Shown here: positions 26,363 through 63,009 of the stretch, in pieces
Numbering within the stretch: the first letter of the stretch is position 1
Layout: each line of letters opens with the position of its first letter
Source: Escherichia coli
GTDB taxonomy: Bacteria > Pseudomonadota > Gammaproteobacteria > Enterobacterales > Enterobacteriaceae
Reading direction: 5' to 3' (one strand)
NCBI RefSeq assembly: GCF_002854065.1
Contig: NZ_CP024147.1
Length of the DNA stretch: 64,000 nt
Translations under genes and position numbers: made by a program
The notes under the pieces: generated by a model
What the model was told of the DNA's origin: nothing
Seen by the model: only the letters and a program-made list of their open reading frames with translations
Databases searched by the model: none

Positions 26363-26365
26363 GGA

Positions 26366-32232: not shown

Positions 32233-32327
32233 TGGAGCACCTCAAAAACACCATCATACACTAAATCAGTAAGTTGGCAGCATCACCCGTCAGATGAAAG
32301 AATTAATCGGTAACGAAGGAGATATTC

Positions 32328-32498: not shown

Positions 32499-32506
32499 GG
32501 TGAATT

Positions 32507-33721: not shown

Positions 33722-33734
33722 TCAGGAGAAAATC

Positions 33735-34031: not shown

Positions 34032-34040
34032 GGAATTTAC

Positions 34041-34205
34041 CATGAGAGGACTTGCATACAATCCCGGAATTCTTCCGGCAGAAATGATTATTCGCCAACG
34101 CGTAAAGCCAATGCCATCGAGAGAGGAATTGCTTAAGAGAAAGAGTTTCGGTTCTGTTAATGACAACAAATATCTGAATGCGATGTGGCTGAGTGGGAAG
34201 AAATG
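34041..34205 (+). CDS. Hypothetical small phage protein
   Basis: 54-aa in-frame segment from ATG 34041 within ORF 33889-34206; start uncertain. Confidence 0.3.
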
Positions 34206-34685
34206 AAACAAATGACACTAATTGAGATGGATGGATTTCTGAAAGGTAAATGCATCCCATGTGATTTAAAGGTTAACGAAACAAACGCTGAATATCTTGT
34301 GCGTAAGTTCGGTGAACTTGAATCAAAACTAGAAACGGCGTTGCGGGAGTGTAGTTCTGCTGGAATCACGATTGATAACCTTGAGGCCAAGTGCGCGAAG
34401 ATGGCTGCTGAAAATACCTCGCTTAAGCAATCTGAGAAGGAATTTAATGACTTTTGTCGTGAGGAGTTTAGCGAATGGGAAGATGATGTTACTGAAACCC
34501 CAGCCACCGATGCTTTCCTGGCTGAAGTACGGGCGCAGGGGGTAGAGATGTACGCAGATAACCTCGACAACGGAGCAGACGACGCAGAACGAGGTGGTTT
34601 TGATTATGCCGCTAAGTTTCTACGCGGTGAGGCGTCTAGTGTACGCTTGTTCGCCGACCAGCTTCGCAAAGGAGGCAACCAGTGA
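34185..34685 (+). CDS. Ead/Ea22-like phage protein (start may be ATG 34203)
   Basis: 166-aa ORF with coiled-coil/acidic features typical of lambdoid Ea22-like proteins. Confidence 0.5.
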
Positions 34686-35161
34686 GCAAGATTAACTATC
34701 AGGCACTGCGTGAGGCGGCGGAACGTGCAATTCCAGCAATGGAACGCCTGTTAATGTTGCCAGTTGATGATGATTTGTTAAGTGAACAGGAACTTAAAGA
34801 TTACGGTGTGGATATTGATGCGCTCAACGCCTTCAAATTTCTGACCGGACCAGAAACCGTGCTGGCGCTGCTGGATGAGCTGGAAAGAAAACAGCAATAC
34901 ATCAAATCCCGAGACCAGGAGAACGAGGATATTGCGCTAACGGTAGGGAAGCTGCGCGTTGAGCTGGAAGCCGCAGAGAAGCGCATTGCTGAGCTGGAGT
35001 TGCGGGAGGTTGTGCTTCCGCAATGCTATAGCATGTTGCATCGCGTCGATTTTGACGAGCCTTACCACACTGAAATGGTTTACAGGCAGCATCAGGTTCT
35101 TGAGGCACTGCACAACGCTGGAATAAACGTCACCGAAGCAGGTAAAGGAGAGGCATCATGA
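34682..35161 (+). CDS. Ead/Ea22-like phage protein
   Basis: 159-aa ORF, coiled-coil region (LRVELEAAEKRIAELELRE); overlaps neighbours by 4 nt. Confidence 0.5.
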   Translation: MSKINYQALREAAERAIPAMERLLMLPVDDDLLSEQELKDYGVDIDALNAFKFLTGPETVLALLDELERKQQYIKSRDQENEDIALTVGKLRVELEAAEKRIAELELREVVLPQCYSMLHRVDFDEPYHTEMVYRQHQVLEALHNAGINVTEAGKGEAS

Positions 35162-35670
35162 GCACTATCACAAGAGAATGGCTGCAGCAGGCTATCAACG
35201 ATTATGAAAGCGTTCGTGATGAGCTTCCTTTCGGGCTTGATGATTACCAGGGGAATATCCTGGCTGCCCTGCGTATCGCACTGGCATCGCTGGAAGCAGA
35301 GCCGGTGGCGTGGAAGGTAACATTCACGCAAATTGACCGTGAATATAACACGTTCACTGGTATGTATTCTGACAAAGCAGAAGTCGAACGGTGGGTGCGG
35401 CTGCATAAAGCATGTAATTTTCGGGCAGATATAACACCGCTTTATACCGCCAAGCCAGTGCCGGTAACTCCGGATGGTTGGATAAGCTGTAGTGAGCGAA
35501 TGCCAGAGGACGGTCAGCACGTAATTATTTTATGTGATGGCGCATTCGTTCTTTATGCGCAATATCGAGACGGAGAGTTTTTCGATATTGTCCGCAATGG
35601 TGATGAATTTTTCGAAACACAGAGTCGCAATGTAACCGACTGGATGCAACTACCAGAACCTCCCCTTTGA
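35158..35670 (+). CDS. DUF551-type phage protein
   Basis: 170-aa ORF; C-terminal region (PDGWISCSERMPEDGQHVIILCDG) resembles DUF551. Confidence 0.5.
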   Translation: MSTITREWLQQAINDYESVRDELPFGLDDYQGNILAALRIALASLEAEPVAWKVTFTQIDREYNTFTGMYSDKAEVERWVRLHKACNFRADITPLYTAKPVPVTPDGWISCSERMPEDGQHVIILCDGAFVLYAQYRDGEFFDIVRNGDEFFETQSRNVTDWMQLPEPPL

Positions 35671-35766
35671 TAGCTAAGCTTATACATATCTTTTACATCA
35701 GCAATCTATTGTTAATCTCCAATCAATGTTACGTTGTCATCTCTCTCATGCTTTGGAGGTAGTGAT

Positions 35767-35958
35767 ATGTCTTGTCCAAAATGCGGTTCTGGAAATATTG
35801 CAAAAGAAAAAACAATGCGTGGATGGTCTGATGATTATGTGTGCTGCGATTGCGGATACAACGACTCTAAAGACGCATTTGGAGAGCGTGGTAAAAACGA
35901 GTTTGTCAAAATTAATAAAGAACGCGAAGGCGGTGATGCTGCCAACTTACTGATTTAG
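35767..35958 (+). pseudogene. Phage zinc-ribbon protein with C-terminus altered by IS1 insertion (native end ...EREGNEKS reconstructed across the IS)
   Basis: CxxC...CxxC motif (MSCPKCGSG...YVCCDCGY); GGAGGT RBS 6 nt upstream of ATG 35767; reading frame runs into the IS1 terminal repeat. Confidence 0.55.
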
Positions 35959-35986
35959 TGTATGATGGTGTTTTTGAGGTGCTCCA

Positions 35987-36262
35987 GTGGCTTCTGTTTC
36001 TATCAGCTGTCCCTCCTGTTCAGCTACTGACGGGGTGGTGCGTAACGGCAAAAGCACTGCCGGACATCAGCGCTATCTCTGCTCTCACTGCCGTAAAACA
36101 TGGCAACTGCAGTTCACTTACACCGCTTCTCAACCCGGTACGCACCAGAAAATCATTGATATGGCCATGAATGGCGTTGGATGCCGGGCAACCGCCCGCA
36201 TTATGGGCGTTGGCCTCAACACGATTTTCCGCCATTTAAAAAACTCAGGCCGCAGTCGGTAA
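35987..36262 (+). CDS. insA: IS1 InsA
   Basis: 91-aa ORF. Confidence 0.9.
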
Positions 36263-36684
36263 CCTCGCGCATACAGCCGGGCAGTGACGTCATCGTCTGC
36301 GCGGAAATGGACGAACAGTGGGGATACGTCGGGGCTAAATCGCGCCAGCGCTGGCTGTTTTACGCGTATGACAGGCTCCGGAAGACGGTTGTTGCGCACG
36401 TATTCGGTGAACGCACTATGGCGACGCTGGGGCGTCTTATGAGCCTGCTGTCACCCTTTGACGTGGTGATATGGATGACGGATGGCTGGCCGCTGTATGA
36501 ATCCCGCCTGAAGGGAAAGCTGCACGTAATCAGCAAGCGATATACGCAGCGAATTGAGCGGCATAACCTGAATCTGAGGCAGCACTTGGCACGGCTGGGA
36601 CGGAAGTCGCTGTCGTTCTCAAAATCGGTGGAGCTGCATGACAAAGTCATCGGGCATTATCTGAACATAAAACACTATCAATAA
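36181..36684 (+). CDS. insB: IS1 transposase InsB
   Basis: 167-aa ORF. Confidence 0.9.
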
Positions 36685-36823
36685 GTTGGAGTCATTACCC
36701 GCGAAGGCAACGAAAAAAGCTAATTTATTTATTCATATATGAAAACAATGTAATAAATATTCGAATTGAAGAATTGAAAGAACACCAAGCCGCCTGATGG
36801 CGGTTTTTTATTGGAGACAAGAA

Positions 36824-37168
36824 ATGTCAGATTTGGCTATGAAGGTTTTGAAATGGCAATCGACTGGCGATGTCGGCATCAGTAGCGCAACTCTTGCCTC
36901 AATCGCATGTGGCCTGAAAAAGAATATCTATGGTCATCACTTCGGCGCTCCCCATGACGCAGCAGACTTTCGGCGATGCGTTGCACTTGTTGAGCAGATT
37001 CCAGAAATCAGAGATTCATTCGACAAGGTTGCAAAGCGCGTTCCGGCATTCAAAGGAATCCTCAACGAATGGGATTCACTCGTTGCTCTGTTGAAGTCTG
37101 AAATGAAGACGTACGGGAACAAAGCACCAGAGACTTACAGAAGAATCAGCGAGCTACGCAAGGACTAA
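36824..37168 (+). CDS. Hypothetical phage protein (moron-like unit bracketed by hairpin/T-run elements)
   Basis: Start at ATG 36824 (MSDLAMKVLKWQ...) with GGAGA RBS; GC hairpin plus T-run at 36789-36809 and a similar element at 37209-37229. Confidence 0.45.
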   Translation: MSDLAMKVLKWQSTGDVGISSATLASIACGLKKNIYGHHFGAPHDAADFRRCVALVEQIPEIRDSFDKVAKRVPAFKGILNEWDSLVALLKSEMKTYGNKAPETYRRISELRKD

Positions 37169-37245
37169 CGCCTCACACTCGATGAGGCCTGTACATATCT
37201 GATAGATCCGCTATATGGCGGTTTATTTTTGCCTGGAGAATTAAG

Positions 37246-37437
37246 ATGACCGATACCAGCCTGATTCCTGAGAAAGAAGTGATGAACAAGCTCGGTGTTT
37301 CATCACGTCAGACAATCTGGAACTATACCAAACGGCACGGATTTCCGAAGCCAGTCAGAACCCACCCCAAATCATACCTTCGTGAAGCTGTTGAAGGGTG
37401 GATTCTTAACGGTGGCGTTAATCAGAAATGCTCCTGA
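37246..37437 (+). CDS. alpA: AlpA-family phage transcriptional regulator / excisionase-like
   Basis: 63-aa ORF with HTH (VSSRQTIWNYTKRHGFPKP), convergent with and adjacent to integrase. Confidence 0.7.
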   Translation: MTDTSLIPEKEVMNKLGVSSRQTIWNYTKRHGFPKPVRTHPKSYLREAVEGWILNGGVNQKCS

Positions 37438-38596
37438 TGTGCCAGAACAATTTATCAGCGTGAAGCTCATACGCTTTGCGCTGAGCCTCTATCCAGTCGT
37501 GTTTATTGTATACGGACATTATCCCGCCAAGTTCATGACCGAGCATTCGCTCAGTAACATGAGGCTCGACATTCATCTCGGACAGACGTGTAACAAGCGT
37601 TCTTCTGAAATCGTGTGTTCGCCAGTAACCTAGATCCATCCCTCCCCTTATTCTATTTACGAATCGGTTGGCTGCAGCGATGCTGATCGGTTTGTTTATG
37701 TCTTCTCCAGGGAAAAGAACATCATTGTACGTTGTCATGGCCTTTTCGAGGAAAGGCTTAATTTGTTCGAAGATTGGACGGCGGATAACATTACCCATCT
37801 TGCTATGCTCTTTCGGTACGGTCCATACGTTTTCCAGCAGGTCAAATTCTGTCTTTTTTGCCAGCCTAAGCTCTGAGAGCCTCGCCCCCCACAGCATAAG
37901 CATCTGATGAAGTAGCTTATTTGACGTAGACGCACGGCTTCTTTCAATAGCAAGCCAAATCTTAGCCAGTTCGTGATACGACAGTACCCGATCCCCTACC
38001 TCAGCGCGGGAGCCGAAGTCCCTTGGTTGGATGCTCATAATTGCGCAACTATCTATCAACTGACGCCGCATGCACCAACTTATTGCTGATCTTAGTTGAC
38101 TTAGCACCTGCCTTGCTCGGCGTGGATTATCTCTTTCTTCTTCGGTAAGCAGGTCAACCCATTGCTTAACCGTGATAGAAGATGCCGGACGATTAGGAAA
38201 GGCGTCATGCATGCGCTTCATAACCGTTGATCGGTAAAGTGCCTGGGTCTTTTCTCTGAGAGTTGTAGAGACGTAGTTGTCGAACCAGTAGTCGAGACAC
38301 TGGGCGACCGTCATGGAGTTCTCCACCTTCTCTTCAAAATAAGTGCGTGGATCCGTTCCTGAGAAATAGAGCTTTCGCAAGTCAGCAGTGATCTGTCTGG
38401 CATCCTTCAAAGACAGGGATGGGTATCGACCAAGCCCAAGTCGATTAGGCTTGCCATGCCAGCGATAGCGGTACTGGAACTGGATGACCCCCTTCGGTGA
38501 AATTCGTACGCTGAGGCCATCGGCATCAGCCACTTCTTGTGGGCCCGAATATGGTTTACCATAAATACTACGCAGTTTTGTGTCGCTTATAGCCAT
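37418..38596 (-). CDS. int: Tyrosine-type phage integrase (P4-type, N-terminal arm-binding domain)
   Basis: 392-aa ORF with integrase catalytic region (HDFRRT...LGH...Y); adjacent to attR. Confidence 0.85.
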   Translation of the reverse strand: MAISDTKLRSIYGKPYSGPQEVADADGLSVRISPKGVIQFQYRYRWHGKPNRLGLGRYPSLSLKDARQITADLRKLYFSGTDPRTYFEEKVENSMTVAQCLDYWFDNYVSTTLREKTQALYRSTVMKRMHDAFPNRPASSITVKQWVDLLTEEERDNPRRARQVLSQLRSAISWCMRRQLIDSCAIMSIQPRDFGSRAEVGDRVLSYHELAKIWLAIERSRASTSNKLLHQMLMLWGARLSELRLAKKTEFDLLENVWTVPKEHSKMGNVIRRPIFEQIKPFLEKAMTTYNDVLFPGEDINKPISIAAANRFVNRIRGGMDLGYWRTHDFRRTLVTRLSEMNVEPHVTERMLGHELGGIMSVYNKHDWIEAQRKAYELHADKLFWHIRSISD

Positions 38597-38605
38597 AAAT
38601 AATAT

Positions 38606-38648
38606 TTGGTACGCTCAGAAATAATGGTTTGGTACACATCTGGTACAC
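38606..38648. repeat. Direct repeats TTTGGTAC(G/A)C x3, putative integrase arm-type sites (attR side)
   Basis: tttggtacgc 38606-38615, tttggtacac 38628-38637, ctggtacac 38640-38648; matching pair on attL side at 23638-23660. Confidence 0.5.
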
Positions 38649-38777
38649 AATATCACATGGACAACAGCGCACAGTAAACAACTATATTTGACGTTCGTAG
38701 ACATACTCAGGTGAAAAAATGGTTGTTTTTCGAGTTATAACAGACAGTTAATTAACTACAGTGGACAATGCTAGACA

Positions 38778-40202
38778 ATGACAGACGCAGATAAACAACC
38801 TACCTTCCTCTTTCACGATTACGAAACCTTTGGCACGCACCCCGCGTTAGATCGCCCTGCACAGTTCGCAGCCATTCGCACCGATAGCGAATTCAATGTC
38901 ATCGGAGAACCCGAAGTCTTTTACTGCAAGCCCGCTGATGACTATTTACCCCAGCCAGGAGCAGTATTAATTACCGGTATTACCCCGCAGGAAGCACGGG
39001 CGAAAGGAGAAAACGAAGCCGCGTTTGCCGCCCGTATTCACTTGCTTTTTACCGTACCGAAGACCTGTATTCTGGGCTACAACAATGTGCGTTTCGACGA
39101 CGAAGTCACACGCAACATTTTTTATCGTAATTTCTACGATCCTTACGCCTGGAGCTGGCAAAACCGCAATTCGCGCTGGGATCTGCTTGACGTGATGCGC
39201 GCCTGCTATGCCCTGCGCCCGGACGGCATCAACTGGCCGGAAAACGACGACGGTCTGCCGAGCTTCCGCCTGGAACATCTCACCAAGGCCAACGGTATTG
39301 AACACAGTAACGCCCATGATGCGATGGCCGACGTTTACGCGACCATCGCCATGGCGAAGCTGGTGAAGGCCCAACAGCCAAAGCTGTTTGATTATCTGTA
39401 TGCCTACCGGGGCAAAAACAAGCTGATGACGCTGATTGACGTCCCGCAGATGAAGCCACTGGTGCATGTCTCGGGAATGTTTGGCGCCTGGCGCGGAAAC
39501 ACCAGCTGGATTGCGCCGCTGGCCTGGCATCCGGATAACCGTAATGCGGTGATCATGGTCGACCTGGCGGGCGACATCGCCCCGCTGCTCGAGCTGGATG
39601 CCGATACGCTGCGCGAGCGCCTGTATACGCCGAAGGCCGAGCTCGGCGACAGTTCGCCGGTGCCGATTAAGCTGGTGCATCTGAATAAGTGCCCGGTGCT
39701 GGCGCAGGCCAATACCCTGCGCCCAGAAGACGCTGACCGTTTAGGCATTAACCGACAGCACTGCCTGGATAACCTGAAACTGCTGCGCGATAACCCGCAG
39801 GTGCGCGAGAAGGTGGTGGCGATTTTTGCTGAAGCCGAGCCGTTTGTCGCATCGGACAACGTCGACGCCCAGCTTTATAACGGTTTCTTTAGCGACGCCG
39901 ACCGCGCGGCGATGAAAATCGTGCTGGAGACCGAGCCGCGCAATCTGCCGGCGCTGGACATTACCTTCGCCGACCCGCGTATTGAGAAGCTGCTGTTTAA
40001 CTTCCGCGCGCGCAACTTCCCCGGCACGCTGGATGAAAACGAGCAACAGCGCTGGCTGGAACACCGTCGGCAGATCTTCACCCCGGAATTTTTACAGGCC
40101 TACGCCCAGCAACTGGAGATGTTGTACGGTCAGTATGAGGGGAATAACGAGAAGCTATCGCTGCTGAAGGCGCTGTATCAGTACGTGCAGGAGATTGTTT
40201 AA
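38778..40202 (+). CDS. sbcB: Exodeoxyribonuclease I, with phage-supplied promoter and first ~11 codons (MTDADKQPTFLF...)
   Basis: 474-aa ORF with DnaQ-like exonuclease N-terminus (FLFHDYETFG); hairpin terminator 40211-40241 downstream. Confidence 0.9.
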   Translation: MTDADKQPTFLFHDYETFGTHPALDRPAQFAAIRTDSEFNVIGEPEVFYCKPADDYLPQPGAVLITGITPQEARAKGENEAAFAARIHLLFTVPKTCILGYNNVRFDDEVTRNIFYRNFYDPYAWSWQNRNSRWDLLDVMRACYALRPDGINWPENDDGLPSFRLEHLTKANGIEHSNAHDAMADVYATIAMAKLVKAQQPKLFDYLYAYRGKNKLMTLIDVPQMKPLVHVSGMFGAWRGNTSWIAPLAWHPDNRNAVIMVDLAGDIAPLLELDADTLRERLYTPKAELGDSSPVPIKLVHLNKCPVLAQANTLRPEDADRLGINRQHCLDNLKLLRDNPQVREKVVAIFAEAEPFVASDNVDAQLYNGFFSDADRAAMKIVLETEPRNLPALDITFADPRIEKLLFNFRARNFPGTLDENEQQRWLEHRRQIFTPEFLQAYAQQLEMLYGQYEGNNEKLSLLKALYQYVQEIV

Positions 40203-46308: not shown

Positions 46309-51813
<5,505 letters not shown>

Positions 51814-52469: not shown

Positions 52470-53636
52470 TCAATCATTACCAAACAGATCGCGGGTATAC
52501 ACCTTCTCTTTCACATCAGCCAATTCTTCCGCCATTCGGTTAGAAATGATGACATCCGCTTCTTGCTTAAATGCATCCAAATCGCGTACAACGCGGGAAT
52601 TAAAGAATTCATCTTCTTTCATCGCAGGTTCATACACAATCACTGGAATGCCTTTCGCTTTGATTCGTATCATAATCCCTTGAATCGAAGATGCGCGGAA
52701 ATTGTCGGATCCTGACTTCATGACGAGGCGATATACCCCAACCACTTTCGGCTTGCGGGCCAGGATGGAATCGGCAATAAAATCCTTGCGGGTACGGTTA
52801 GCGTCAACAATCGCACCGACGATGTTATTTGGCACAGACGCATAATTTGCCAGCAGTTGTTTAGTATCTTTCGGGAGGCAATATCCACCATAACCAAAAG
52901 ATGGATTGTTATAGTGATTACCGATGCGCGGGTCCAGGCACACGCCTTCAATAATCTGGCGGGAGTTCAGGCCCAGGCTTTCCGCATAGCTATCCAGCTC
53001 GTTGAAATAAGCCACGCGCATCGCGAGGTAGGTGTTCGCGAATAGCTTGATAGCTTCGGCTTCGGTCGAGTCGGTGAACAGCGTCGGGATATCCTTCTTC
53101 ACTGCCCCTTCCTGCAGCAGCGCGGCAAAACGCTCGGCACGCTCAGAACGTTCGCCGATAACGATACGCGACGGATGCAGGTTGTCGTACAGCGCACGGC
53201 CTTCGCGCAGGAATTCCGGCGAGAAGAAAATATTGTCGATACCCAGTTTTTCTTTAATCGAATTGGTAAAGCCTACCGGAATGGTAGATTTGATAACCAT
53301 CACCGCGTTGGGGTTGATTTCAACGACGTCACGGATAACAGACTCAACGCTGGACGTATTGAAATAGTTCGTTTTGGGGTCGTAATCGGTCGGAGTGGCG
53401 ATGATCACATAGTCTGCATCGCGATAAGCATCGCGCTTATCAGTGGTCGCACGGAAATTCAGCGGTTTGGTCGCCAGATACTCTTCGATCTCTTTGTCGA
53501 CGATCGGCGACTGTTTCTGATTCAGCATGTCGACCTTGGCCTGAACGATATCCAGGGCCACCACTTCGTGGTGCTGGGCGATCAGAATGCCGTTCGACAG
53601 GCCGACGTAACCTGTTCCTGAAATAGTTATCTTCAT
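52470..53636 (-). CDS. ugd: UDP-glucose 6-dehydrogenase
   Basis: 388-aa ORF ([16 protein letters not shown]...GGYCLPKD catalytic Cys motif). Confidence 0.9.
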
Positions 53637-53839: not shown

Positions 53840-55246
53840 TTAATCCAGCCATTCGGTGTGGAACACACCTTCTTTATCAGTGCGTTTATAGGTATGCGCG
53901 CCGAAGTAGTCACGCTGAGCCTGAATCAGGTTCGCCGGCAGTACCGCAGCGCGGTAGCTATCGTAGTACGCCACTGCTGCAGAGAAGGTCGGTACCGGAA
54001 TACCGTTCTGCACAGCATAGGCCACCACGTCACGCAGCGCCTGCTGGTATTCATCAGCGATATTTTTGAAGTACGGTGCCAGCAGCAGGTTGGCGATACT
54101 CGCGTTTTCAGCGTAGGCGTCGGTGATTTTCTGCAGGAACTGTGCACGAATGATGCAGCCCGCGCGGAAGATCTTCGCGATTTCGCCGTAGTTCAGATCC
54201 CAGTTGTACTCGTCAGACGCGGCACGCAGCTGAGAGAAGCCCTGCGCGTAGGAGACGATTTTACCCAGGTACAGTGCGCGACGCACTTTCTCAACGAACT
54301 CTGCTTTATCGCCAGCCAGTTTAGCCTGCGGGCCAGTCAGCACTTTAGATGCCGCCACGCGCTGGTCTTTCAGGGAGGAGATGTAGCGCGCGAAAACAGA
54401 TTCAGTGATCAGCGACAGCGGTTCGCCCAGGTCCAGAGAGCTCTGGCTAGTCCATTTACCGGTGCCTTTGTTCGCCGCTTCGTCGAGGATCACATCAACC
54501 AGGTATTTACCGTCTTCATCTTTTTTGGTGAAGATGTCTTTGGTGATGTCGATCAGGTAGCTGCTCAGCTCGCCTTCATTCCACTCGGTGAAGGTGGTTG
54601 CCAGCTCTTCGTTAGACAGGTTCAGGCCGCCTTTCAGCAGAGAATAGGCTTCAGCAATCAGCTGCATGTCGCCGTATTCGATACCGTTGTGGACCATTTT
54701 CACGTAATGACCCGCACCGTCAGCACCGATGTAGGTTACGCAAGGCTCGCCGTCTTCAGCTACAGCAGCAATCTTGGTCAGGATAGGCGCAACCAACTCA
54801 TACGCTTCTTTCTGGCCGCCAGGCATGATAGATGGGCCCTTCAGCGCGCCCTCTTCGCCGCCGGATACGCCGGTACCGATGAAGTTAAAGCCTTCAGCAG
54901 ACAGCTCACGGTTACGACGAATGGTATCCTGGAAGAAGGTGTTACCACCATCAATGATGATGTCACCTTTATCAAGGTAAGGTTTCAGGGAATCGATGGC
55001 AGCATCGGTGCCCGCGCCTGCTTTCACCATTAACAGGATACGACGTGGGGTCTCAAGAGACTCGACGAACTCCTTGACCGTGTAGTGAGGAACCAGCTTT
55101 TTGCCTGGATTCTCAGCGACAACTTCTTCGGTTTTTTCACGGGAGCGGTTGAAGATAGAGACGGTATAACCACGGCTTTCGATGTTGAGCGCCAGGTTGC
55201 GCCCCATCACAGCCATACCGACTACGCCGATTTGTTGCTTAGACAT
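53840..55246 (-). CDS. gnd: 6-phosphogluconate dehydrogenase (decarboxylating)
   Basis: 468-aa ORF ([21 protein letters not shown]...). Confidence 0.95.
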
Positions 55247-55417: not shown

Positions 55418-56563
55418 TTAGAGCACTTCTTGCATTGTGAGTTTATTATAGATTTGAACGGTTTTTCGTATGACAACGGTAGATGAATACTTTTCCTCTA
55501 CTCGCTTTCTGGCATTCTGCCCCATCTTAGTGCGCTCAAGAGGATCGCTAATAAGGATACCAAGCTTCTGAGAAAATAGGTTCACATTTCCTTTAGGCAC
55601 AAGGAAACCGTTATAACCGTCAAGTATTAAACTCCCACAACCACCAGTGTCAAAACTTATAACAGGACGACCGATTGCACCGGCTTCTAAAAGAATTCGA
55701 GGAATACCTTCAGAGTAAACAGATGGCAAAGCGACTATATCCACACTTTCAATTAATTCCTTGATATCGCTACGCTTGCCCAGCCAAATGATATCACCGG
55801 AGTTATGCCACTCTTCTATCTGAGTTATACTTATAGCGTCGCGATCATTGTCAACAAGAATGCCCGCAACTAATATCTCAAATTCGATGCCTTGTAATTT
55901 TAAAATTCTACTAGCATCAATTAACGTGCGTAGCCCTTTACTCCAAAGCATGCGACTTGCAAAAAAAACTTTAACCTTGGTATTATTAGGTGGTGTACTA
56001 TAACAAAAATAGTCTATATTAATACCTGCGCCATCAATAACTTCAGTTTTATTTTTTGGAATATCTAATAGTTCAATTATTTTTTGCTGATCTTTTTTAT
56101 GTTCAAAGAGGATACAACAATCAATATTTAAGAAAAATCTTCTATACATATTAGCAATTAAGAACTTAACCATTTGGTAAATGACCTTATTGCTTTCAAA
56201 AACTCTACCTAACCCAACAAAACTATAGACCATTTTTTTGTTTCGGATTCTGGCCCATAAACAACTAATCACACCAGGTTTAATCGTGACGCTATGCACA
56301 ATATCAGGATTAATTTTATTCAATGTTCTAAATGAGCGAGTTATATCGCAAAAGAAAACAACAGGATTGATATTTTGCTCTTTTATTTTACTATCAATAC
56401 ACTTAAATCCTAAACTAGTAAAGCGATCCAGAATAGACTTGTCAGAATAATTCGCAAAAATATAGACATCATATCCTGCTTCCAGAACTGATAAGGCACG
56501 ATCTAACCAATGTAATTCGAAATACCAAGCGGAGTTCACAAAATAACATATCTTTATTTTCAT
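55418..56563 (-). CDS. Glycosyltransferase family 1 (GT4-type), O-antigen cluster
   Basis: 381-aa ORF with C-terminal GT1 motif (...EGIPRILLEAGAIGRPVISFDTGG...); AT-rich. Confidence 0.7.
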   Translation of the reverse strand: MKIKICYFVNSAWYFELHWLDRALSVLEAGYDVYIFANYSDKSILDRFTSLGFKCIDSKIKEQNINPVVFFCDITRSFRTLNKINPDIVHSVTIKPGVISCLWARIRNKKMVYSFVGLGRVFESNKVIYQMVKFLIANMYRRFFLNIDCCILFEHKKDQQKIIELLDIPKNKTEVIDGAGINIDYFCYSTPPNNTKVKVFFASRMLWSKGLRTLIDASRILKLQGIEFEILVAGILVDNDRDAISITQIEEWHNSGDIIWLGKRSDIKELIESVDIVALPSVYSEGIPRILLEAGAIGRPVISFDTGGCGSLILDGYNGFLVPKGNVNLFSQKLGILISDPLERTKMGQNARKRVEEKYSSTVVIRKTVQIYNKLTMQEVL

Positions 56564-56718: not shown

Positions 56719-58878
56719 TCACCAACACACAAGCATGTATTCATACACCAGATCACGCTCAGGCTGGAGGTGAACAAACTTGAATTGATAACCCATATTG
56801 AGATTTTCAACAAATTTCTTACATTCAAAAATTTGCTCTGGCTGCAACCACAAGTGATAAACAGAAATCAGCAACACGGGCTTGTGTTTTTTGATTGTCT
56901 CGATTGCACCATTAAGGGCATTAATCTCATAGCCTTCAATATCGAATTTAATCAAACCAACACGATCTTCAAACGTCAGACTATCAATAGTGACCGATTG
57001 AACTTTAATGTCAGACTGCTCGTCTTCAACAACACATGAGCCTACTCCATCATCCCCAACTTTCATCATCGAAAGTTCGCCAGATACATTGCTGACAGCA
57101 ACATTTAAGGGTTTAATAGTATCATTTAAATATTGATGATTACGCTCAAGATTCCGAACCATACAGTTATAATTATCAGCTACAGGTTCTAAGGCAAGTA
57201 CTTCTTTAAATCCAAAGCTAGCGAACATGATAGCTGTATCACCAACCCAAGCCCCACAATCTATAGCAACAGAGCCTTTGAATTCTTCAGTGAATCGGCC
57301 TGGAAGATACTTCAAGCCAGCTTTGAAATAGTTGGTTGCTAGAGTAACCGGTAATTCAGATAGATCAAGATGCTGAATTAATTCTTTTTCGTGACGTAAG
57401 ATTGAATCAATATTTGACAATATAACTCTATCTTCATCCGTAAATAATGTTAAAGATAAAGGTAATTCCAACTCAATGCCTTGATGTTCAAAGTATGGCA
57501 GTAATTCATAAAAACCAAATAATTTCCTCTCATTTTGAAGGCTAAATTCATCAAGGCCGCGTTTGAATTCTTCACGTAGTTTAGAGATCCGAGAGGAATT
57601 TACCTTCATGTAATAATAAAACTGGTTAGTAGGCGCTACTTTTATTAGTACAGAACCATTTTTATTCTGTCCTGAAATGACATCGACTTTATCAGTAAGT
57701 TCTTTCGACATCTTCAAAAATGAAGAATCTAACTCCTCCCGAAAATGTTTGGAAAGTAAAGATGAGGAGGAATCCATTTTTGATGAAACAGCATTAATAA
57801 TTGGTTCAATTATTAATTTGTTAGTAATAAAACGTAGTTTGGAAACGACTTTCTTTTTAATCCTGTTTCTTGTCTGAACTGTTTTTATAATCCTGTTACT
57901 CATCAACTCATTATAAATTGGAAGAACATGATTATAATAATAGTCATTTGTATCGGAGGAAAATGAAACATTAGAAGTTACTGGCTGGAAACCTTCTTCT
58001 TTAGCCTGTTCAAAAACAGCAATAGCAGCTTCCTGATATGACTTCAATCCATCGCCTCTCAAACGAGAAGAATGGAAAACTAAATCAAAAAGATGGTGAA
58101 AATAAAAATGATTCAGGTATTTTTGAAACGTTCCAACACTAAGAAGGTGTTTTTTTATAATATCATAATTATTAAAAGATATTAATGCCTTGTCAGCACT
58201 AGCACTGGATGAGCCCACGTTCATGACCCTGTAGTTATAAACAGGCACATTCAAAAGAGTTATCTTTTCTACAGAGGCATAGGTGATGAATTTAAAGGGC
58301 ATATCCTGATATGAAGCCCCAGGACTTTCATAGAAGCGAATATGATTTTCTTCAAGAAAATCTCTTCTATACAAGCCAGTCCAGATTGATGATTCAAGCA
58401 AGAAAAGCTCAACTGAATTTTCTGGTACAATTTCTGCCAAGTTATCATTATCAAATGTACATAAATGCGCAAGGGACTGAGTATTGATTACAACTTCATT
58501 ACTTATTCTATTGAAACTTGCTTTAATGACCGGATTCGGGATTTTATTATAAGCGTCTATTAGACGCTCAAACATATCAAGCTGAACCCAATCGTCTGTT
58601 TCGATGATAGAAATAAAATCGCCGCTTGCAACATCTAGCCCAGAGTTGATTGCAGCTCCGTAACCTGCGTTTTTTTTATGGATAGCAATAATTCTTGTAT
58701 CGCTCGAAGCGTATCGATCAATAATCTGAGGGCAAGCATCAGGGCTACCGTCATTGACTATTATTATTTCCAGATTCTTATATGTTTGAGACAGAACACT
58801 GTCGAGACATTGCTCTAAATAAACTTCGCCGCCGTATACAGGTAAAATAACGGAAATTTTAAAGATATCATCACCCAT
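56719..58878 (-). CDS. Fused glycosyltransferase family 2 (N-terminal) - FkbM-family methyltransferase (C-terminal)
   Basis: 719-aa ORF; N-terminus ISVILPVYGGEVYLEQCLDSVLSQTY...IVNDGS...DDW (GT2); C-terminus AIDCGAWVGDTAIMFA...FDIEGYEINAL (FkbM-type SAM methyltransferase). Confidence 0.65.
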   Translation of the reverse strand: MGDDIFKISVILPVYGGEVYLEQCLDSVLSQTYKNLEIIIVNDGSPDACPQIIDRYASSDTRIIAIHKKNAGYGAAINSGLDVASGDFISIIETDDWVQLDMFERLIDAYNKIPNPVIKASFNRISNEVVINTQSLAHLCTFDNDNLAEIVPENSVELFLLESSIWTGLYRRDFLEENHIRFYESPGASYQDMPFKFITYASVEKITLLNVPVYNYRVMNVGSSSASADKALISFNNYDIIKKHLLSVGTFQKYLNHFYFHHLFDLVFHSSRLRGDGLKSYQEAAIAVFEQAKEEGFQPVTSNVSFSSDTNDYYYNHVLPIYNELMSNRIIKTVQTRNRIKKKVVSKLRFITNKLIIEPIINAVSSKMDSSSSLLSKHFREELDSSFLKMSKELTDKVDVISGQNKNGSVLIKVAPTNQFYYYMKVNSSRISKLREEFKRGLDEFSLQNERKLFGFYELLPYFEHQGIELELPLSLTLFTDEDRVILSNIDSILRHEKELIQHLDLSELPVTLATNYFKAGLKYLPGRFTEEFKGSVAIDCGAWVGDTAIMFASFGFKEVLALEPVADNYNCMVRNLERNHQYLNDTIKPLNVAVSNVSGELSMMKVGDDGVGSCVVEDEQSDIKVQSVTIDSLTFEDRVGLIKFDIEGYEINALNGAIETIKKHKPVLLISVYHLWLQPEQIFECKKFVENLNMGYQFKFVHLQPERDLVYEYMLVCW

Positions 58879-60199
58879 TGTCTTTCAAAACCTTTCGCAA
58901 AGTGGATTGGAAATTATAGCGCTGATTAAAGTTGGCAAAGACATTTCGACTATGAGTAGCCATGTTAATGAGCTCATCTTTTTTAAGCGATGTAATGAAC
59001 TCAGCACACTTTTGCGCAGATTCGATCTGATGGTACGCTTCTGTCGACTCAATCCCTTCCATAGCAGCTTTAGTTGAAACTAATGGAACACCATAAGAAA
59101 GCGCCTCCAGACATTTAACTTTCAACCCTGAAAGTAATTCATCTGGATTGATAATTACATCGCAGGAATGGTAGAACTTATCAAGGCTCTCACAAAAACC
59201 GAGGATATTAACAAAACCAGGGTACTGTCTACCTTCAAGAGCTCCGCAAATTGTTCCTGAAATATCGAGTCTTACATTATGATCAAGTTTACTTAAGCTA
59301 TCGATAAAATTGTTGATCGCAACGACATTTGGATAGTGCCCAGAGGCCATAAAGCCAACAACGATCTTTTTATTGGATGTTGGGACATAATCAATAAAGT
59401 TTACGTCCAGAATAGGTGGCTGAACAATGACTTGGGAACTAACATTCTCCCTGAAGTAACGGCCTTCTGCTTCTTGAATAGCAAATATATAATTAGCTCT
59501 TGATAACCCAATGGTTTCTTCTTTCTTCGATGTAGAGAAATAGAATTTATCTTGTGAAATACCAATTTTTGCCATTCGAGTGTTCCTCTTAGCAAAAACA
59601 TCGTGAGTATCGATCACTGAGACTGTATTAGGTTTAAGGTATAAACACAATTTTGACAGGAAGACATAATTAACAATTGCAATCTGATAATTATTCATCG
59701 CAGAAAGTGCAGCAACAAATTGACATATTTCATCATCAAGCCAATCGTCAATTTTATTTCCATCAGGAATTATTTGCTGATTGACATCGTGTCTTAGAGT
59801 GCCGAACTTTCCGTTCCGACATTTTATATTATAAGTATAATCCCAATCAACACTATTTGAATCCCAAGGTGAATTATTGAAAACAATAGCGTGAATTGTG
59901 AATCCTAGGGATTTTAATGTCGCAATTTTTGTATCAATATTTTTCCCGACGGCATCATTTCCATAAAAAGGCATAATGACTAGCGCATTTTTATCTGAAC
60001 TTGACTTTAAAATTTTTGGAAAAACAGTAAATTCATTTGCATTTTGTTCAGCATTAACGTTCAACGCTTTAATTAATAACCGCCTTGGGTAATGAGCGTT
60101 AACCATGAGGGCAAATAATTTCCAAAGCTTACGTGCGAGCCTGGTATACCTGAATTTAACAAAAGCTTTCTTCAAAAATCTGGTGATTGTGTTTTTCAT
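58871..60199 (-). CDS. Glycosyltransferase (GT1-like C-terminal domain), O-antigen cluster
   Basis: 442-aa ORF; C-terminal region with E(x7)E-like GT1 features; overlaps neighbours by 4-8 nt. Confidence 0.5.
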   Translation of the reverse strand: MKNTITRFLKKAFVKFRYTRLARKLWKLFALMVNAHYPRRLLIKALNVNAEQNANEFTVFPKILKSSSDKNALVIMPFYGNDAVGKNIDTKIATLKSLGFTIHAIVFNNSPWDSNSVDWDYTYNIKCRNGKFGTLRHDVNQQIIPDGNKIDDWLDDEICQFVAALSAMNNYQIAIVNYVFLSKLCLYLKPNTVSVIDTHDVFAKRNTRMAKIGISQDKFYFSTSKKEETIGLSRANYIFAIQEAEGRYFRENVSSQVIVQPPILDVNFIDYVPTSNKKIVVGFMASGHYPNVVAINNFIDSLSKLDHNVRLDISGTICGALEGRQYPGFVNILGFCESLDKFYHSCDVIINPDELLSGLKVKCLEALSYGVPLVSTKAAMEGIESTEAYHQIESAQKCAEFITSLKKDELINMATHSRNVFANFNQRYNFQSTLRKVLKDNG

Positions 60200-60726
60200 A
60201 ATGGAATAGATAACAGATCAGAATAAACTGGATATGTGGCATAACCTACAGCAGGAATCTGATGGCCCGTCTCAACTAAAAAAACTCGGCCCAACCCAAA
60301 CTTTAATCCGGCTTCTACATCACCCAGTTTATCACCAACAATAAAAGATTGTTTTAAGTCAATGGAATAATCACGAGCTGCAGACTCGAACATACCCGTA
60401 TTAGGTTTGCGGCACGAACAATCACATCGATATTCAGGGACAATTCCATCTGGATGATGAGGGCAATAATAGATATCTAATATATCGATACCCTGTGATT
60501 TCAAGATACCCCTATACCACTTTGTCAATTTATCATAATCAGATAAGGTGTAATATCCTTTGGCAATTCCGGCCTGATTTGTCACAATGATTATTTTATA
60601 ACCATGAGCAATAAATCTTTTCATGCCACTGATACAGTTTTTGGTAAATTCAAAATCTTCAATTTTATATAGATAATTGACTTCCTTATTAATTACACCA
60701 TCGCGATCAAGAAATGCCACTTTCAT
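60196..60726 (-). CDS. gmhB: D-glycero-D-manno-heptose 1,7-bisphosphate phosphatase (HAD family)
   Basis: 176-aa ORF with HAD motif FLDRDGVIN and zinc-binding C..H.H..C..C signature typical of GmhB. Confidence 0.75.
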   Translation of the reverse strand: MKVAFLDRDGVINKEVNYLYKIEDFEFTKNCISGMKRFIAHGYKIIIVTNQAGIAKGYYTLSDYDKLTKWYRGILKSQGIDILDIYYCPHHPDGIVPEYRCDCSCRKPNTGMFESAARDYSIDLKQSFIVGDKLGDVEAGLKFGLGRVFLVETGHQIPAVGYATYPVYSDLLSIPL

Positions 60727-61400
60727 TTAAATCTCTCACATGCAATGAAATAATCTTCAGGAATTCCTATATCGATAAAATATGAGGAATTAACGTAGGC
60801 CTTAAACTCTCCTTTGAATTTAGGCAAAAAATCAGATTCAAAAGAAAATTTATTCCCAGCAAACTTGCTCATAATTTCCTTTGAGACAATATAAATTCCA
60901 CTGTTAATAATTCCAGGGCCAGTTCTTCCCTTTTCTACCATAGCATTAACATTAGATTTCTCATCTAAATCTAAACTACCATAACGAGCGACATCATTAA
61001 CTTCGACACCAGATATTAGAAGATCTGTTCCCTTCGAAGCTTCTATGAAGTCACTATAATTAAGCTCGCAGTACGTATCACCATTAAGAACAATGAATTT
61101 ATCCGTTCTGACTTTAGAACTGGCATATTTAATTGCGCCACCAGTTCCTAGAGGTTCTTTTTCGACAACAAAGTCAACCTCACAACCAACAGGGTTGTCA
61201 TGGACAACCCTGTCGATGATATAGTCAGCTTTGTAGGATAATGATAGTATAATTCTGGTAGCTCCTTGTTTTTCAAGATACGTCATTAGACGATAAAGAA
61301 ATGGTTGCCCTGAAATATCTACCATTGGCTTAGGAAGCTCGCCACTAACACTCTTCAGACGAGTACCTAGCCCTCCTGCCAAAATAACTACATCATACAT
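60723..61400 (-). CDS. hddC: D-glycero-alpha-D-manno-heptose 1-phosphate guanylyltransferase
   Basis: 225-aa ORF with nucleotidyltransferase motif ILAGGLGTRL; sits within gmhA/hddA/gmhB set. Confidence 0.7.
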   Translation of the reverse strand: MYDVVILAGGLGTRLKSVSGELPKPMVDISGQPFLYRLMTYLEKQGATRIILSLSYKADYIIDRVVHDNPVGCEVDFVVEKEPLGTGGAIKYASSKVRTDKFIVLNGDTYCELNYSDFIEASKGTDLLISGVEVNDVARYGSLDLDEKSNVNAMVEKGRTGPGIINSGIYIVSKEIMSKFAGNKFSFESDFLPKFKGEFKAYVNSSYFIDIGIPEDYFIACERFK

Positions 61401-61402: not shown

Positions 61403-61993
61403 TTATTTATCTTCTGGTTTGAAAATGGCACGTTCAACAATTGCGCAGATCATATGACCAATGCAAATATGGCATTCTTGAATGTATGGTGTAATTTTAG
61501 AAGGTACATTAATTGAATAGTCTACCAAATCTTTAAGCTTACCTGCTTCACCACATAGCGCCACGCTTGTCACACCCAGTTCTTTTGCCAGTTCCATCGC
61601 GTTAATGATATTAACGGAGTTACCTGAAGTACTGATGCCAATGAAAACATCACCTGGCTTGCTTTGAGCTTGCAGTTGTCTTGCAAATAGTTTATCAAAT
61701 CCGTAGTCATTGCCGATAGCCGTTAGCATCGAGGTATCAGTGGTGATAGCAATGGCTGGTAATCCTGGTCTATCGAAAAAGAAGCGACTGACGAACTCAG
61801 CCGCGATATGCTGAGAATCAGCAGCACTACCACCATTCCCGGCAAGAATTACTTTATTCCCGTTTTTATATGCATTGATAATCAAATCTGCAACTAAAGA
61901 GATTTGGCTCAATACACTGTCAGATTCCTGAAGCAATTTTTTTACTGCAATGCTGTCATCAAGATATGCTTTAATATAATTTACATTGTCCAT
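61403..61993 (-). CDS. gmhA: Phosphoheptose isomerase (SIS domain)
   Basis: 196-aa ORF with SIS motifs (ILAGNGGSAADSQH, ISTSGNS). Confidence 0.8.
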   Translation of the reverse strand: MDNVNYIKAYLDDSIAVKKLLQESDSVLSQISLVADLIINAYKNGNKVILAGNGGSAADSQHIAAEFVSRFFFDRPGLPAIAITTDTSMLTAIGNDYGFDKLFARQLQAQSKPGDVFIGISTSGNSVNIINAMELAKELGVTSVALCGEAGKLKDLVDYSINVPSKITPYIQECHICIGHMICAIVERAIFKPEDK

Positions 61994-63009
61994 GAATATG
62001 CTCCATCCTCGACAAATTGGAATTTATAGACTTCGCCACCAAACTCTTGTAGTTTACGTTCGATCAACTGTTTTCGCTCCGGTTCAACGAATAGCATCAT
62101 AAAACCACCGCCACCGGCACCTGAAACTTTCATTGACTTAACACCGATACTAAACACTTCCTTCTCGATTTTCTCAATCATCGGATTACTGATTGACGAT
62201 GAGGTGTTTTTCTTACTTTCCCATGCATCCAGGAATGTCGCGGCCATAGCATCGATATCAGATTTGAGTAAGTGTTCTTTAATCTGATATGCTGATTCTT
62301 TAACTTTATGCATAGCCATCAGTTTAGACTCTTTGTCACTCTCTAAAGATCTAATCTGGTCATCAATAATTTTCGCAGAGTCTCTCGAAGCCCCTGTAAA
62401 ATAAAGAATCAGGGATGACTCTAACTCATTTATTATATATCTACGAATTCTAAGTGGGTTAACAATAACGCGATTACCTTCATAAAACTCCATGAAATTA
62501 AAACCACCAAATGTTGCAGCATACTGATCTTGTTTACCACCTGATAAACCACAGTCTACTCGCTCAATCTTGAATGCTAACTGGGCCAGATCATATTCTC
62601 CAAGAGGCAGAGAATACATTTGCCGTAGTCCTTCAAGCATTGAAACAACAACCGTCGATGATGACCCCAAACCGCTACCTGCAGGAGCGTCAGAATGAGT
62701 AATGATACGAACCGGTTTTAATTCGCCGTCAAAATAATCATTCATGACTCGAAGGTAAACTGCTCGATGCAGTTTTAGCTTCCCTTCAATCGTTACACCA
62801 TTGGTAAGATCAATCTCTTCTCTGATATTAAGGTCGGTTGCCTCAAAAATAACTTTACTACCTTCAAGCTCATCATCAATGTAAGCATACGCATACATAT
62901 TGATGGTCGCATTCAGTACACACCCACCGAATGTATCGCTATAAGGTGAAACATCTGTCCCACCTCCTGCAATGCCTAAACGTAGAGGCGCTTTGCTTCT
63001 AACTTTCAT
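61981..63009 (-). CDS. hddA: D-glycero-alpha-D-manno-heptose 7-phosphate kinase (GHMP kinase)
   Basis: 342-aa ORF with GHMP kinase motif PAGSGLGSSS. Confidence 0.75.
   Translation of the reverse strand: MKVRSKAPLRLGIAGGGTDVSPYSDTFGGCVLNATINMYAYAYIDDELEGSKVIFEATDLNIREEIDLTNGVTIEGKLKLHRAVYLRVMNDYFDGELKPVRIITHSDAPAGSGLGSSSTVVVSMLEGLRQMYSLPLGEYDLAQLAFKIERVDCGLSGGKQDQYAATFGGFNFMEFYEGNRVIVNPLRIRRYIINELESSLILYFTGASRDSAKIIDDQIRSLESDKESKLMAMHKVKESAYQIKEHLLKSDIDAMAATFLDAWESKKNTSSSISNPMIEKIEKEVFSIGVKSMKVSGAGGGGFMMLFVEPERKQLIERKLQEFGGEVYKFQFVEDGAYSWTM

Follow-up and report, generated by a model that had tools for sequence, protein, structure and literature searches.

WbrX of the Escherichia coli O52 O-antigen cluster, a fused GT2 glycosyltransferase and FkbM-type methyltransferase and putative chain terminator

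The proven precedent for a terminator fused to a polymerase is ORF6 of Klebsiella pneumoniae O7, in which a terminator methyltransferase is joined via a spacer to polymerase GT2 modules and whose orthologues exist both with and without the fused GT modules (Kelly et al., 2024; PMC11231755). WbdD of E. coli O8/O9a and K. pneumoniae O5/O3 acts in ABC-transporter pathways, where a methyl cap at the non-reducing end (O8/O5) stops polymerization, and is tied to the membrane by an amphipathic helix (PMC7685785; PMC11231755). In E. coli O101/O162, an intact methyltransferase was shown to be necessary for O-methylation, capping having long been only hypothesized (PMC13168486, 2026).

WbrX, described here, is a published protein of E. 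coli O52 (Feng et al., 2004, J Bacteriol 186:4510; UniProt Q6E7E0), and both its bifunctionality and the terminator idea are earlier predictions. A review lists O52 as ABC-transporter dependent, describes WbrX as a predicted bifunctional enzyme and proposes the O52 methyltransferase as a terminator because the O52 O unit has no methyl group, yet a methyltransferase is encoded in the cluster (PMC7685785); a more recent article refers to the O52 study as its source for methyl capping of the non-reducing terminus (PMC11380512). The terminator role has been in print as a hypothesis since 2004-2019, and no experimental test of it was found in the literature searched (the primary O52 paper falls outside that scope). 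The 2004 study reportedly found a minor 6-deoxy-3-O-methylhexose, probably 3-O-methylfucose, in the O52 polysaccharide.

The O52 locus

The window, the whole stretch of 64,000 nucleotides analyzed here, carries part of the rare E. coli O52 O-antigen cluster, which was found in 4 of 5,426 complete genomes. The wbrX gene sits among co-directional polysaccharide genes in a low-GC block (32-40% GC vs 50-63% in the flanks), with the following features in the window:

52470-53636, minus strand: ugd
53840-55246, minus strand: gnd
55418..56563, minus strand: GT4-family glycosyltransferase of 381 aa (373 aa by the PGAP start), the final cluster gene before gnd
56719..58878, minus strand: wbrX, bifunctional GT2 glycosyltransferase / FkbM methyltransferase, 719 aa (ORF scan and domain searches)
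58871..60199, minus strand: wbrW, GT-B glycosyltransferase, 442 aa, Q6E7E1 (profile search and cluster look-up)
60196-60726, minus strand: gmhB (NCBIfam, PGAP)
60723-61400, minus strand: hddC (NCBIfam, PGAP)
61403-61993, minus strand: gmhA (NCBIfam, PGAP)
61981-63009, minus strand: hddA (NCBIfam, PGAP)
63026 to past the window end (64000), minus strand: dmhA, 4,6-dehydratase (NCBIfam, PGAP)

The stop of wbrW overlaps the start of wbrX by 8 nt, and wbrW is kept upstream of the wbrX-like genes in loci L002-L006, L009, and L011. The gene for WbrV adjoins an Fcf2/GLF mutase gene in all loci; neither WbrV nor WbrW has a sequence match in the PDB. The genes gmhB, hddC, gmhA, hddA, and dmhA supply the precursor GDP-6-deoxy-D-manno-heptose, a pathway assignment given in a review of E. 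coli O antigens (PMC7685785). The idea that the heptose genes define the partner sugar of WbrX was rejected, since distant WbrX-like loci are without these genes and all of them keep a GLF-family mutase.

The initial annotation had suspected an ABC-transporter system with wzzB missing, and the surroundings of the gene agree. Both wzm and wzt, annotated as "O52 family" by PGAP, lie about 1 kb past the window end (23669-25413 of locus L001, equivalent to window positions 64968-66712), and the PGAP annotation has no wzx or wzy (flippase, polymerase) between galF and gnd. K-12 carries wzzB at the corresponding ugd/hisIE position, whereas here ugd and hisIE are separated by only 56 bp and wzzB is absent between them. 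A Wzx/Wzy-dependent pathway was rejected because wzm and wzt are present and the cluster is without wzx and wzy.

Domain structure and conservation of WbrX

A single 719-aa protein combining a GT2 glycosyltransferase with an FkbM methyltransferase had been proposed at the outset, and this is borne out: the ORF is opened by an ATG start, its extent is exactly 56719..58878, and both domains were recovered. Exact-sequence cluster look-up identified the product as WbrX (Q6E7E0), the name also borne by the UniRef 90%-identity cluster. Pfam searches placed Glycos_transf_2 (PF00535) at residues 9-137 (E 3.5e-31) and Methyltransf_21/FkbM (PF05050) at residues 540-679 (E 2.1e-16) and found no kinase domain. 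Within NCBIfam, TIGR01444 (fkbM_fam) scored 93.3 bits on residues 538-673 against a curated cut-off of 37.7, and PRK10073 matched residues 5-228 (E 2e-33) under its equivalog cut-off, so that it backs GT2 membership at the family level only; the GT2 module had no equivalog-level match. A PDB sequence search matched residues 5-222 to the GT-A enzyme 3bcv (5e-35), with 5hea at 2e-26, and residues 513-708 to the FkbM structure 2py6 (5e-9). By these matches WbrX is a GT2 and FkbM-family enzyme, with glycosyl and methyl transfer as its predicted activities.

Across 10 orthologues, the GT2 motifs N42-D43-G44-S45-P46-D47 and E93-T94-D95-D96 are invariant (regions NDGSPD and ETDD(W), respectively). 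The SAM-binding residues of the C-terminal domain, on which the initial annotation had made its reading depend, are intact: the motifs A538-x-D540-C-G-A-W-V-G546-D-T, A562-L-E564-P565, and K644-F-D646-I-E648-G-Y-E651 are invariant in the same 10 orthologues and align with their counterparts in 2py6. Written as regions, the motifs of this module are AIDCGAWVGDT, ALEP, IKFDIEGYE, and KPVLLISVYH. The protein is divided as follows:

57898..58878, minus strand: residues 1-327, GT2 (GT-A) core (1-230) and helical bundle (233-327)
57784..57897, minus strand: residues 328-365, cationic amphipathic helix, net charge +9
57643..57783, minus strand: residues 366-412, poorly conserved spacer of variable length
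56722..57642, minus strand: residues 413-719, FkbM-type SAM methyltransferase module including an N-terminal extension of ~125 aa

A linker of ~250 aa had been assumed between the two domains, and this has to be revised, as most of it belongs to the catalytic modules. Although the Pfam matches are ~400 residues apart, residues 228-327 form a helical extension that is part of the conserved GT2 module and residues 413-537 are a conserved part of the methyltransferase module, leaving a real inter-module spacer of only ~85 residues (328-412). In distant relatives and in many GT2 proteins of ~715 aa, residues 1 to ~337 are conserved together as a single block, and the same methyltransferase module of ~300 aa is found both stand-alone and fused in other bacteria.

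Within the spacer, the AlphaFold2 secondary structure has a helix spanning residues 335-370, with a hydrophobic moment of 0.54 for residues 338-355. R349, K354, L355, and P359 of this region are conserved in the orthologue alignment, and distant relatives have an analogous basic segment; we infer that helix 328-365 probably lies on the membrane surface. The full-length WbrX model (10 orthologues; mean pLDDT 51.5, with low confidence in the spacer) was used for secondary-structure layout only and not for fold searching.

The 47 residues that follow (366-412) are rich in indels among orthologues. In relatives the spacer varies from ~35 to ~235 or more residues and is repeat-rich and coiled-coil-like in the distant ones, where the long spacers appear to resemble known molecular-ruler terminators. 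A crude heptad test gave no coiled-coil or heptad signal in the WbrX spacer, whose score is reached by 28% of shuffles, and gave a signal in orthologues P0004 and P0010 (0.002 and 0.018, respectively). The spacers of P0004 and P0125 fall in the range of 70 to 230 residues.

Enterobacterales, Vibrionaceae, and relatives from metagenomes keep the GT2-FkbM layout at identities from 100% down to ~35-47%. The distant wbrX-like genes sit beside wzm/wzt. The cluster was found in Escherichia, Shigella, Kluyvera, Enterobacter, Cedecea, Kosakonia, Izhakiella, Vibrio cholerae, and Salinivibrio. At locus L006, a second, stand-alone FkbM gene adjoins the fusion gene.

Proposed chain termination and alternative readings

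The reading favored here, with a probability of roughly 0.6 for the model as a whole, is that WbrX unites a polymerase GT2 module with an FkbM methyltransferase that caps the fucose end and halts the O52 chain. The N-terminal inverting GT2 module would be one of the transferases building the chain of beta-linked D-Fucf and 6-deoxy-D-manno-heptose, which would grow on undecaprenyl-PP-GlcNAc on the cytoplasmic side of the inner membrane. The cationic amphipathic helix (328-365) would keep WbrX at the membrane, and the short variable spacer would tether the C-terminal FkbM-type methyltransferase, the proposed substrate of which is the fucose at the non-reducing end. Because the added O-methyl would occupy the hydroxyl required for the next transfer, elongation would stop and chain length would be set. 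The capped chain would be exported by Wzm/Wzt, and a small beta-sandwich on Wzt may recognize the cap. Terminal methylation of the WbdD type had been suggested in the initial annotation; a terminator is indeed proposed for this locus in the literature (PMC7685785; PMC11380512), but the enzyme is FkbM-type and has no kinase domain.

The O52-type Wzt ends in an extra beta-sandwich of 87 residues (238-324; model pLDDT 88.9), in which N, Y, D, W, R, and Y positions are conserved. In fold comparison the tail comes closest to the carbohydrate-binding module CBM56, and it has no match to Pfam Wzt_C; judged from the modeled fold, it is a possible cap reader. The Wzt of distant WbrX-like loci is short and without any extra domain. 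The 343-360-aa Wzt tails, mostly of Vibrio and other marine genera, had no detectable kinship to the O52-type tail in a full-length Wzt search followed by local jackhmmer, which were used because a tail-only homologue query was uninformative (its own protein was not recovered).

The alternative that survives best, though still unlikely, is that the methyltransferase decorates internal fucose (or other) residues non-stoichiometrically, giving antigenic change and no termination, with chain length set only by the kinetics of polymerization versus export, which is the case in K. pneumoniae systems of the O1/O2 type, whose Wzt is without a CBM. Internal 3-O-methylation does occur alongside terminal methylation in P. 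syringae, but methyl is absent from the repeat unit of O52 (PMC7685785). The short Wzt of distant loci and the lack of a detectable coiled coil in WbrX would suit internal decoration, as would the second FkbM gene of L006, which suggests several methylation sites in some polymers; the O52-type Wzt, however, does carry the extra beta-sandwich. The methylated sugar is also reportedly only a minor component, and if the 3-O-methyl belongs to the sugar that the chain links through position 3, an internal place is excluded for it.

More doubtful is a dedicated two-step terminator, in which the GT2 module adds one extra terminal fucose, the fused methyltransferase methylates that same residue, and WbrV and WbrW are the polymerase. 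O52 has one glycosyltransferase beyond the need of its repeat unit (PMC7685785), but the proven precedents, K. pneumoniae O7 ORF6 and O12 WbbB, fuse polymerase GT modules to terminators (PMC11231755). At every locus WbrV neighbors the Fcf2/GLF mutase gene, as would be expected of the polymerizing furanosyltransferase, and fused capping steps would channel substrate, although the donor sugar is not readable from the WbrX sequence. Adaptor transferases, which ABC-transporter pathways need (compare WbdB/WbdC in O9a), can also explain the extra glycosyltransferase. Finally, as fused ORFs can arise through stop-codon loss, a fusion devoid of functional meaning, with one domain inactive or the genes joined recently by chance, was weighed, but nothing was found in its favor, and it is highly improbable and effectively refuted by conservation, since the layout is kept across genera and close orthologues show no change in the catalytic and SAM motifs of either module.

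If the terminator role of WbrX were confirmed, O52 would join the known ways of measuring and capping ABC-transporter-built polysaccharides as a compact variant, in which the cap is a plain methyl group and the FkbM-type enzyme is fused to a polymerase module with almost no ruler. Its Wzt would also offer a small candidate module for cap binding. Since the cluster is spread over many genera, the result would hold for many surface antigens. It would extend an established paradigm and bring no new principle; the finding is unremarkable, the prediction having been made before.

A wider reading is possible but tentative, namely that WbrX-like proteins are a distinct class of polymerase-terminator fusions made of a GT2 module, a cationic membrane helix, a variable spacer, and an FkbM module, in which polysaccharide length would be set by the spacer (~35 to 235 or more residues across relatives) and FkbM would give a plain O-methyl cap. 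In the O52 type, a new Ig-like module on Wzt, minimal in size (~87 residues) and unrelated to known Wzt_C modules, would read the cap. Were this true, the tail-less Wzt of distant relatives would imply that export need not be coupled to termination within one enzyme family.

Comparison with known systems

The protein in the window and the WbrX described for E. coli O52 in 2004 are the same, with no difference in sequence class. WbdD shares with the model for WbrX the capping of the non-reducing end in an ABC-transporter pathway, but it is a stand-alone protein: its N-terminal part is a class I methyltransferase, joined in O9a by a kinase, and its long C-terminal coiled coil serves as a ruler and recruits a separate polymerase, WbdA. 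Membership of WbrX in the WbdD family was rejected, as its methyltransferase is FkbM-type and C-terminal, its N-terminus is a GT2 module, and it has neither a kinase nor a long coiled coil. It is thus no homologue of WbdD, though it may work similarly. The O101/O162 terminator is, like WbrX, a methyltransferase encoded in the cluster of an E. coli ABC-transporter O antigen, but it has an N-terminal methyltransferase and a C-terminal coiled coil with no GT fusion.

Methylated sugars also occur in other systems. WsaE of the Geobacillus stearothermophilus S-layer glycan combines methyltransferase and rhamnosyltransferase domains and gives a 2-O-methyl-rhamnose cap in an ABC-transporter-dependent system, the O antigen of Rhizobium etli CE3 terminates in methylated fucose, and NoeI, of the FkbM family, methylates Nod-factor fucose at O-2. 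These differ from WbrX in their sugars, domain orders, and methyltransferase classes.

Like WbrX, K. pneumoniae O7 ORF6 belongs to an ABC-transporter O-antigen system and holds a methyltransferase and GT2 modules in one polypeptide with a spacer. The order in ORF6 is reversed, with the methyltransferase N-terminal and two GT2 modules C-terminal, and its methyltransferase is of another class, paired with a kinase and forming a methyl-phosphate cap, whereas that of WbrX is FkbM-type without a kinase. ORF6 also has a long coiled coil predicted by DeepCoil, in contrast to WbrX, which has one GT2 module and a spacer of only 47 residues.

The wbrX gene and its surroundings

The single reading frame proposed in the initial annotation was confirmed at exactly 56719-58878 (-), with 719 codons and an ATG start, and it lies in a block of 32-40% GC between flanks of 50-63%. 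Exact-sequence look-up placed its product in the UniRef cluster named WbrX (Q6E7E0), with WbrW (Q6E7E1, 442 aa) and WbrV (Q6E7F0, 284 aa) as neighbours; these are the gene names of the E. coli O52 cluster described by Feng et al. 2004. The 8.7 kb around wbrX is present at 99.9-100% identity in only 4 of 5,426 complete E. coli genomes. The cluster in one of these four, E. coli CUWW06 (locus L001), has the following content.

Features of the O52 cluster in CUWW06
Minus strand, part 1: galF, rfbB, rfbA, fcf1, glf-type mutase (Fcf2), GT2 (284 aa), wzm, wzt
Minus strand, part 2: dmhB-like reductase, dmhA-like dehydratase, hddA, gmhA, hddC, gmhB
Minus strand, part 3: GT (442 aa), the 719-aa gene, GT4, gnd, ugd, hisIE
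L001 23669-24643, equivalent to window 64968-65942 (outside the window): O52-type Wzt, 324 aa

The initial annotation proposed that WbrX might terminate chains or methylate sugars, and looked to wzm and wzt just past the window for support and to wzx and wzy for refutation. Both wzm and wzt are present in L001, and wzt would begin some 1 kb past the end of the window. The transporter genes bear the PGAP label 'O52 family O-antigen export ABC transporter'; the L001 cluster carries neither wzx nor wzy. The wbrW stop and wbrX start overlap by 8 nt (58871-58878) and the gmhB start and wbrW end by 4 nt (60196-60199), which suggests translational coupling in that stretch of the operon. Start codons are ambiguous for wbrW (442 vs 434 aa) and GT4 (381 vs 373 aa) in PGAP.

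The window is 96-100% identical to K-12 only as far as ~23.6 kb. From 38794 to 64000 and on, sbcB, tsuB/A, plaP, yeeZ, the his operon (58-63% GC), ugd and gnd are 73-86% identical to K-12, and wzzB, already noted as missing, is absent on comparison with K-12, as are yeeY and yoeB-yefM. Judged from this divergence and the missing genes, the O52 locus lies inside a large imported tract of inter-genus divergence, spanning at least 25 kb inside the window and >30 kb with the remainder of the cluster; Kluyvera and Enterobacter roggenkampii are candidate donor lineages. The ugd/hisIE junction occurs only in the four O52-cluster genomes. Between dacD and sbcB lies a 15-kb prophage remnant (23583-38794) without K-12 counterpart, whose matches are to baseplate/tail genes of Mu-like prophages (DNA circularization protein, baseplate J/gp47, acyltransferase). 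These matches are scattered among other E. coli genomes; even in CUWW06, which has an identical O52 cluster, only about half of the remnant has a match, elsewhere in the chromosome. In an IS5-containing segment (17886-19718) two blocks have changed places relative to K-12, whose CP4-44/agn43 region is missing. Long ORFs antisense to gnd (53858-55033, +, 391 aa) and hisB (48548-49639, -, 363 aa) are most likely codon-bias artefacts of GC-rich genes rather than genes.

Domain architecture of WbrX

A Pfam search, suggested by the initial annotation, found both expected domains in the 719-aa protein.

WbrX residues 9-137: Glycos_transf_2 (Pfam, E 3.5e-31)
WbrX residues 540-679: Methyltransf_21, FkbM (Pfam, E 2.1e-16)

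The NCBIfam model fkbM_fam scored 93.3 bits (curated cut-off 37.7). In a search of solved structures, residues 5-222 matched the GT-A enzyme 3bcv (5e-35) and residues 513-708 the FkbM structure 2py6 (5e-9; 1.3e-9 with the C-terminal module as sole query). Ten orthologues (62-100% identity; E. coli, Izhakiella, Salinivibrio, metagenomes) align from end to end, and the GT2 motifs NDGSPD (42-47) and ETDD (93-96) are invariant among them. The methyltransferase motifs AxDCGAWVGDT (538-548), A(L/I)EP (562-565), IKxDxEG(Y/F)E (643-651) and KPxLLISVYH (666-675) are conserved and line up with those of 2py6, and D540, G542, G546, E564, P565, D646, E648, G649 and E651 are invariant; the SAM-binding residues, whose absence the initial annotation would have taken as refutation, are thus present. 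By sequence, WbrX is assigned to both the GT2 and FkbM families.

The ~250-aa linker first described between the domains consists mostly of conserved module parts, leaving residues 328-412 as the true remainder. Residues 228-327 fold into a helical bundle whose conservation follows that of the GT2 core, not only among distant relatives but also in numerous unrelated multidomain GT2 proteins. The methyltransferase, for its part, has a conserved N-terminal extension (413-537). The resulting ~300-residue module (413-719) also occurs as a C-terminal fusion and on its own, in proteins 307-380 aa long; a search of 1.84 billion proteins gave 21 representatives of the module at E<1e-30 and 3,389 at E<1e-10. 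Residues 328-365 are predicted to be helical with a net charge of +9 (the two catalytic modules have -18 and -15) and include conserved R349, K354, L355 and P359; distant relatives have a similar basic segment directly after the GT2 module. This segment probably anchors the protein at the membrane surface. Among orthologues, residues 366-412 show little conservation and many indels.

Relatives with 35-47% identity and the same module order include P0121 (725 aa), P0122 (787), P0123 (776), P0125 (911), P0142 (862), P0201 (993) and P0223 (1161). The gap between the two conserved modules ranges from ~35 residues (P0002) to ~235 or more (P0125 and longer), and the long spacers are coiled-coil-like and rich in repeats: P0125 has about five 35-residue repeats, P0122 three, P0223 classic heptads, and P0010 a duplicated ASRIDNLDYELL unit. 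When heptads were scored crudely and compared with 500 shuffles, the signal was above chance for P0004 (0.002) and P0010 (0.018), marginal for P0125, P0223 and P0122 (0.04-0.07), and not above chance for the 47-residue spacer of WbrX (0.28), so that a coiled coil in the E. coli protein is not supported. Given these gaps and spacers, the family acts as if spacer length were a tunable parameter, by analogy with the coiled-coil rulers of known terminators.

Conserved partners and the Wzt tail

The full O52-type gene order is kept in Izhakiella, Salinivibrio, a Cedecea-like contig and Vibrio cholerae, and copies with at least 90% identity occur in Enterobacter roggenkampii, Kluyvera and Shigella dysenteriae. 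All four distant WbrX-like loci (L004-L007) encode a GLF-family pyranose-furanose mutase, three (L004, L005, L006) have a WbrW-like GT-B gene directly upstream of the wbrX-like gene, and wzm/wzt were seen in L004, L005 and L007, the L006 contig being too short to judge. Since L006 alone of these four has 6-deoxyheptose genes, the conserved partners are a furanose donor, WbrW and the ABC transporter, not heptose. L006, a metagenomic 6-deoxyheptose cluster, also has a second, stand-alone FkbM methyltransferase gene (10366-11502, 378 aa) directly downstream of the fusion gene, which hints at a polymer methylated more than once.

The nucleotide-binding domain of O52-type Wzt matches Aquifex Wzt over residues 25-231 (1e-46), and in the 87 residues that follow (238-324) Pfam recognised no family, Wzt_C included. 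The length of this tail is constant across all O52-type clusters and its sequence diverges much faster than the ATPase domain, with N244, N256, Y261, D263, W295, R297 and Y304 invariant. Modelled alone (14 sequences), it forms a confident 8-strand beta-sandwich (pLDDT 88.9, pTM 0.78) with CBM56 as closest fold match. It is a small separate family, unrelated in sequence to Wzt_C and to the tails of 343-360-aa Wzt proteins (mostly Vibrio, other marine genera), and the model would fit a new kind of small module that binds the cap. The tail and WbrX occur together in 5/5 assessable O52-type loci, but since the cluster is syntenic throughout, this does not count as independent evidence; Wzt in the distant loci is 213-250 aa and without tail. 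[quoted passage not shown]

Proposed role and comparison with known systems

The O52 O antigen uses the ABC-transporter pathway and has a two-residue backbone with D-Fucf and 6-deoxy-D-manno-heptose; its glycosyltransferases are one above the expected number, and WbrX is predicted to be bifunctional, 'but further investigation is needed' (PMC7685785). A passage in a 2024 Yersinia paper, citing the O52 study, states that methyl added at the non-reducing terminus stops polymerisation (PMC11380512). The gene, the prediction that its product is bifunctional and the hypothesis of a terminator are already in print, and the initial annotation therefore rediscovered a proposal that is so far a prediction; no experimental work on WbrX was found in the literature searched. 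The analogous O101/O162 methyltransferase was not shown to be needed for O-methylation until 2026 (PMC13168486). Added here, as description, are corrected domain boundaries, the cationic helix, family-wide spacer-length variation, the beta-sandwich that ends Wzt and the broad distribution of the O52-type cluster.

We consider it fairly probable (roughly 0.6) that membrane-bound WbrX polymerises through its GT2 module and caps terminal fucose through its FkbM module before export by Wzm/Wzt. The cationic helix would place WbrX on the cytoplasmic face of the inner membrane, where the GT2 module would be one of the inverting transferases making the beta-linked chain and the tethered FkbM module would methylate the terminal fucose. 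Feng et al. 2004 reportedly found a minor 6-deoxy-3-O-methylhexose, probably 3-O-methylfucose. Methylation of the terminal fucose would be at O-3, the position substituted in the O52 polymer, so that a cap there would block elongation. The capped chain would leave via Wzm/Wzt, possibly recognised by the Wzt tail. The main rival, internal and non-stoichiometric methylation without control of chain length, we regard as unlikely. Profile and solved-structure searches with WbrX, WbrV and WbrW gave no donor sugar for the WbrX GT2 module, and a variant in which this module adds a dedicated terminal residue instead of polymerising seems quite improbable. That WbrX represents a distinct FkbM-based class of polymerase-terminator, in which the spacer is tunable and Wzt carries a minimal CBM of a new kind, is a tentative suggestion.

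According to Kelly et al., a coiled-coil protein and a CBM on Wzt are found in every system with termination (PMC11231755). WbrX was rejected as a WbdD homologue, having the wrong methyltransferase class, reversed module order, no kinase and no long coiled coil. Among proven cases, the nearest in function is K. pneumoniae O7 ORF6, a single polypeptide that joins a methyltransferase-kinase to two GT2 modules and also contains a coiled coil (PMC11231755). Module order, methyltransferase class and number of GT modules are different in WbrX; its proposed cap is methyl rather than methyl phosphate, and the ruler, unlike that of O7 ORF6, is nearly absent.
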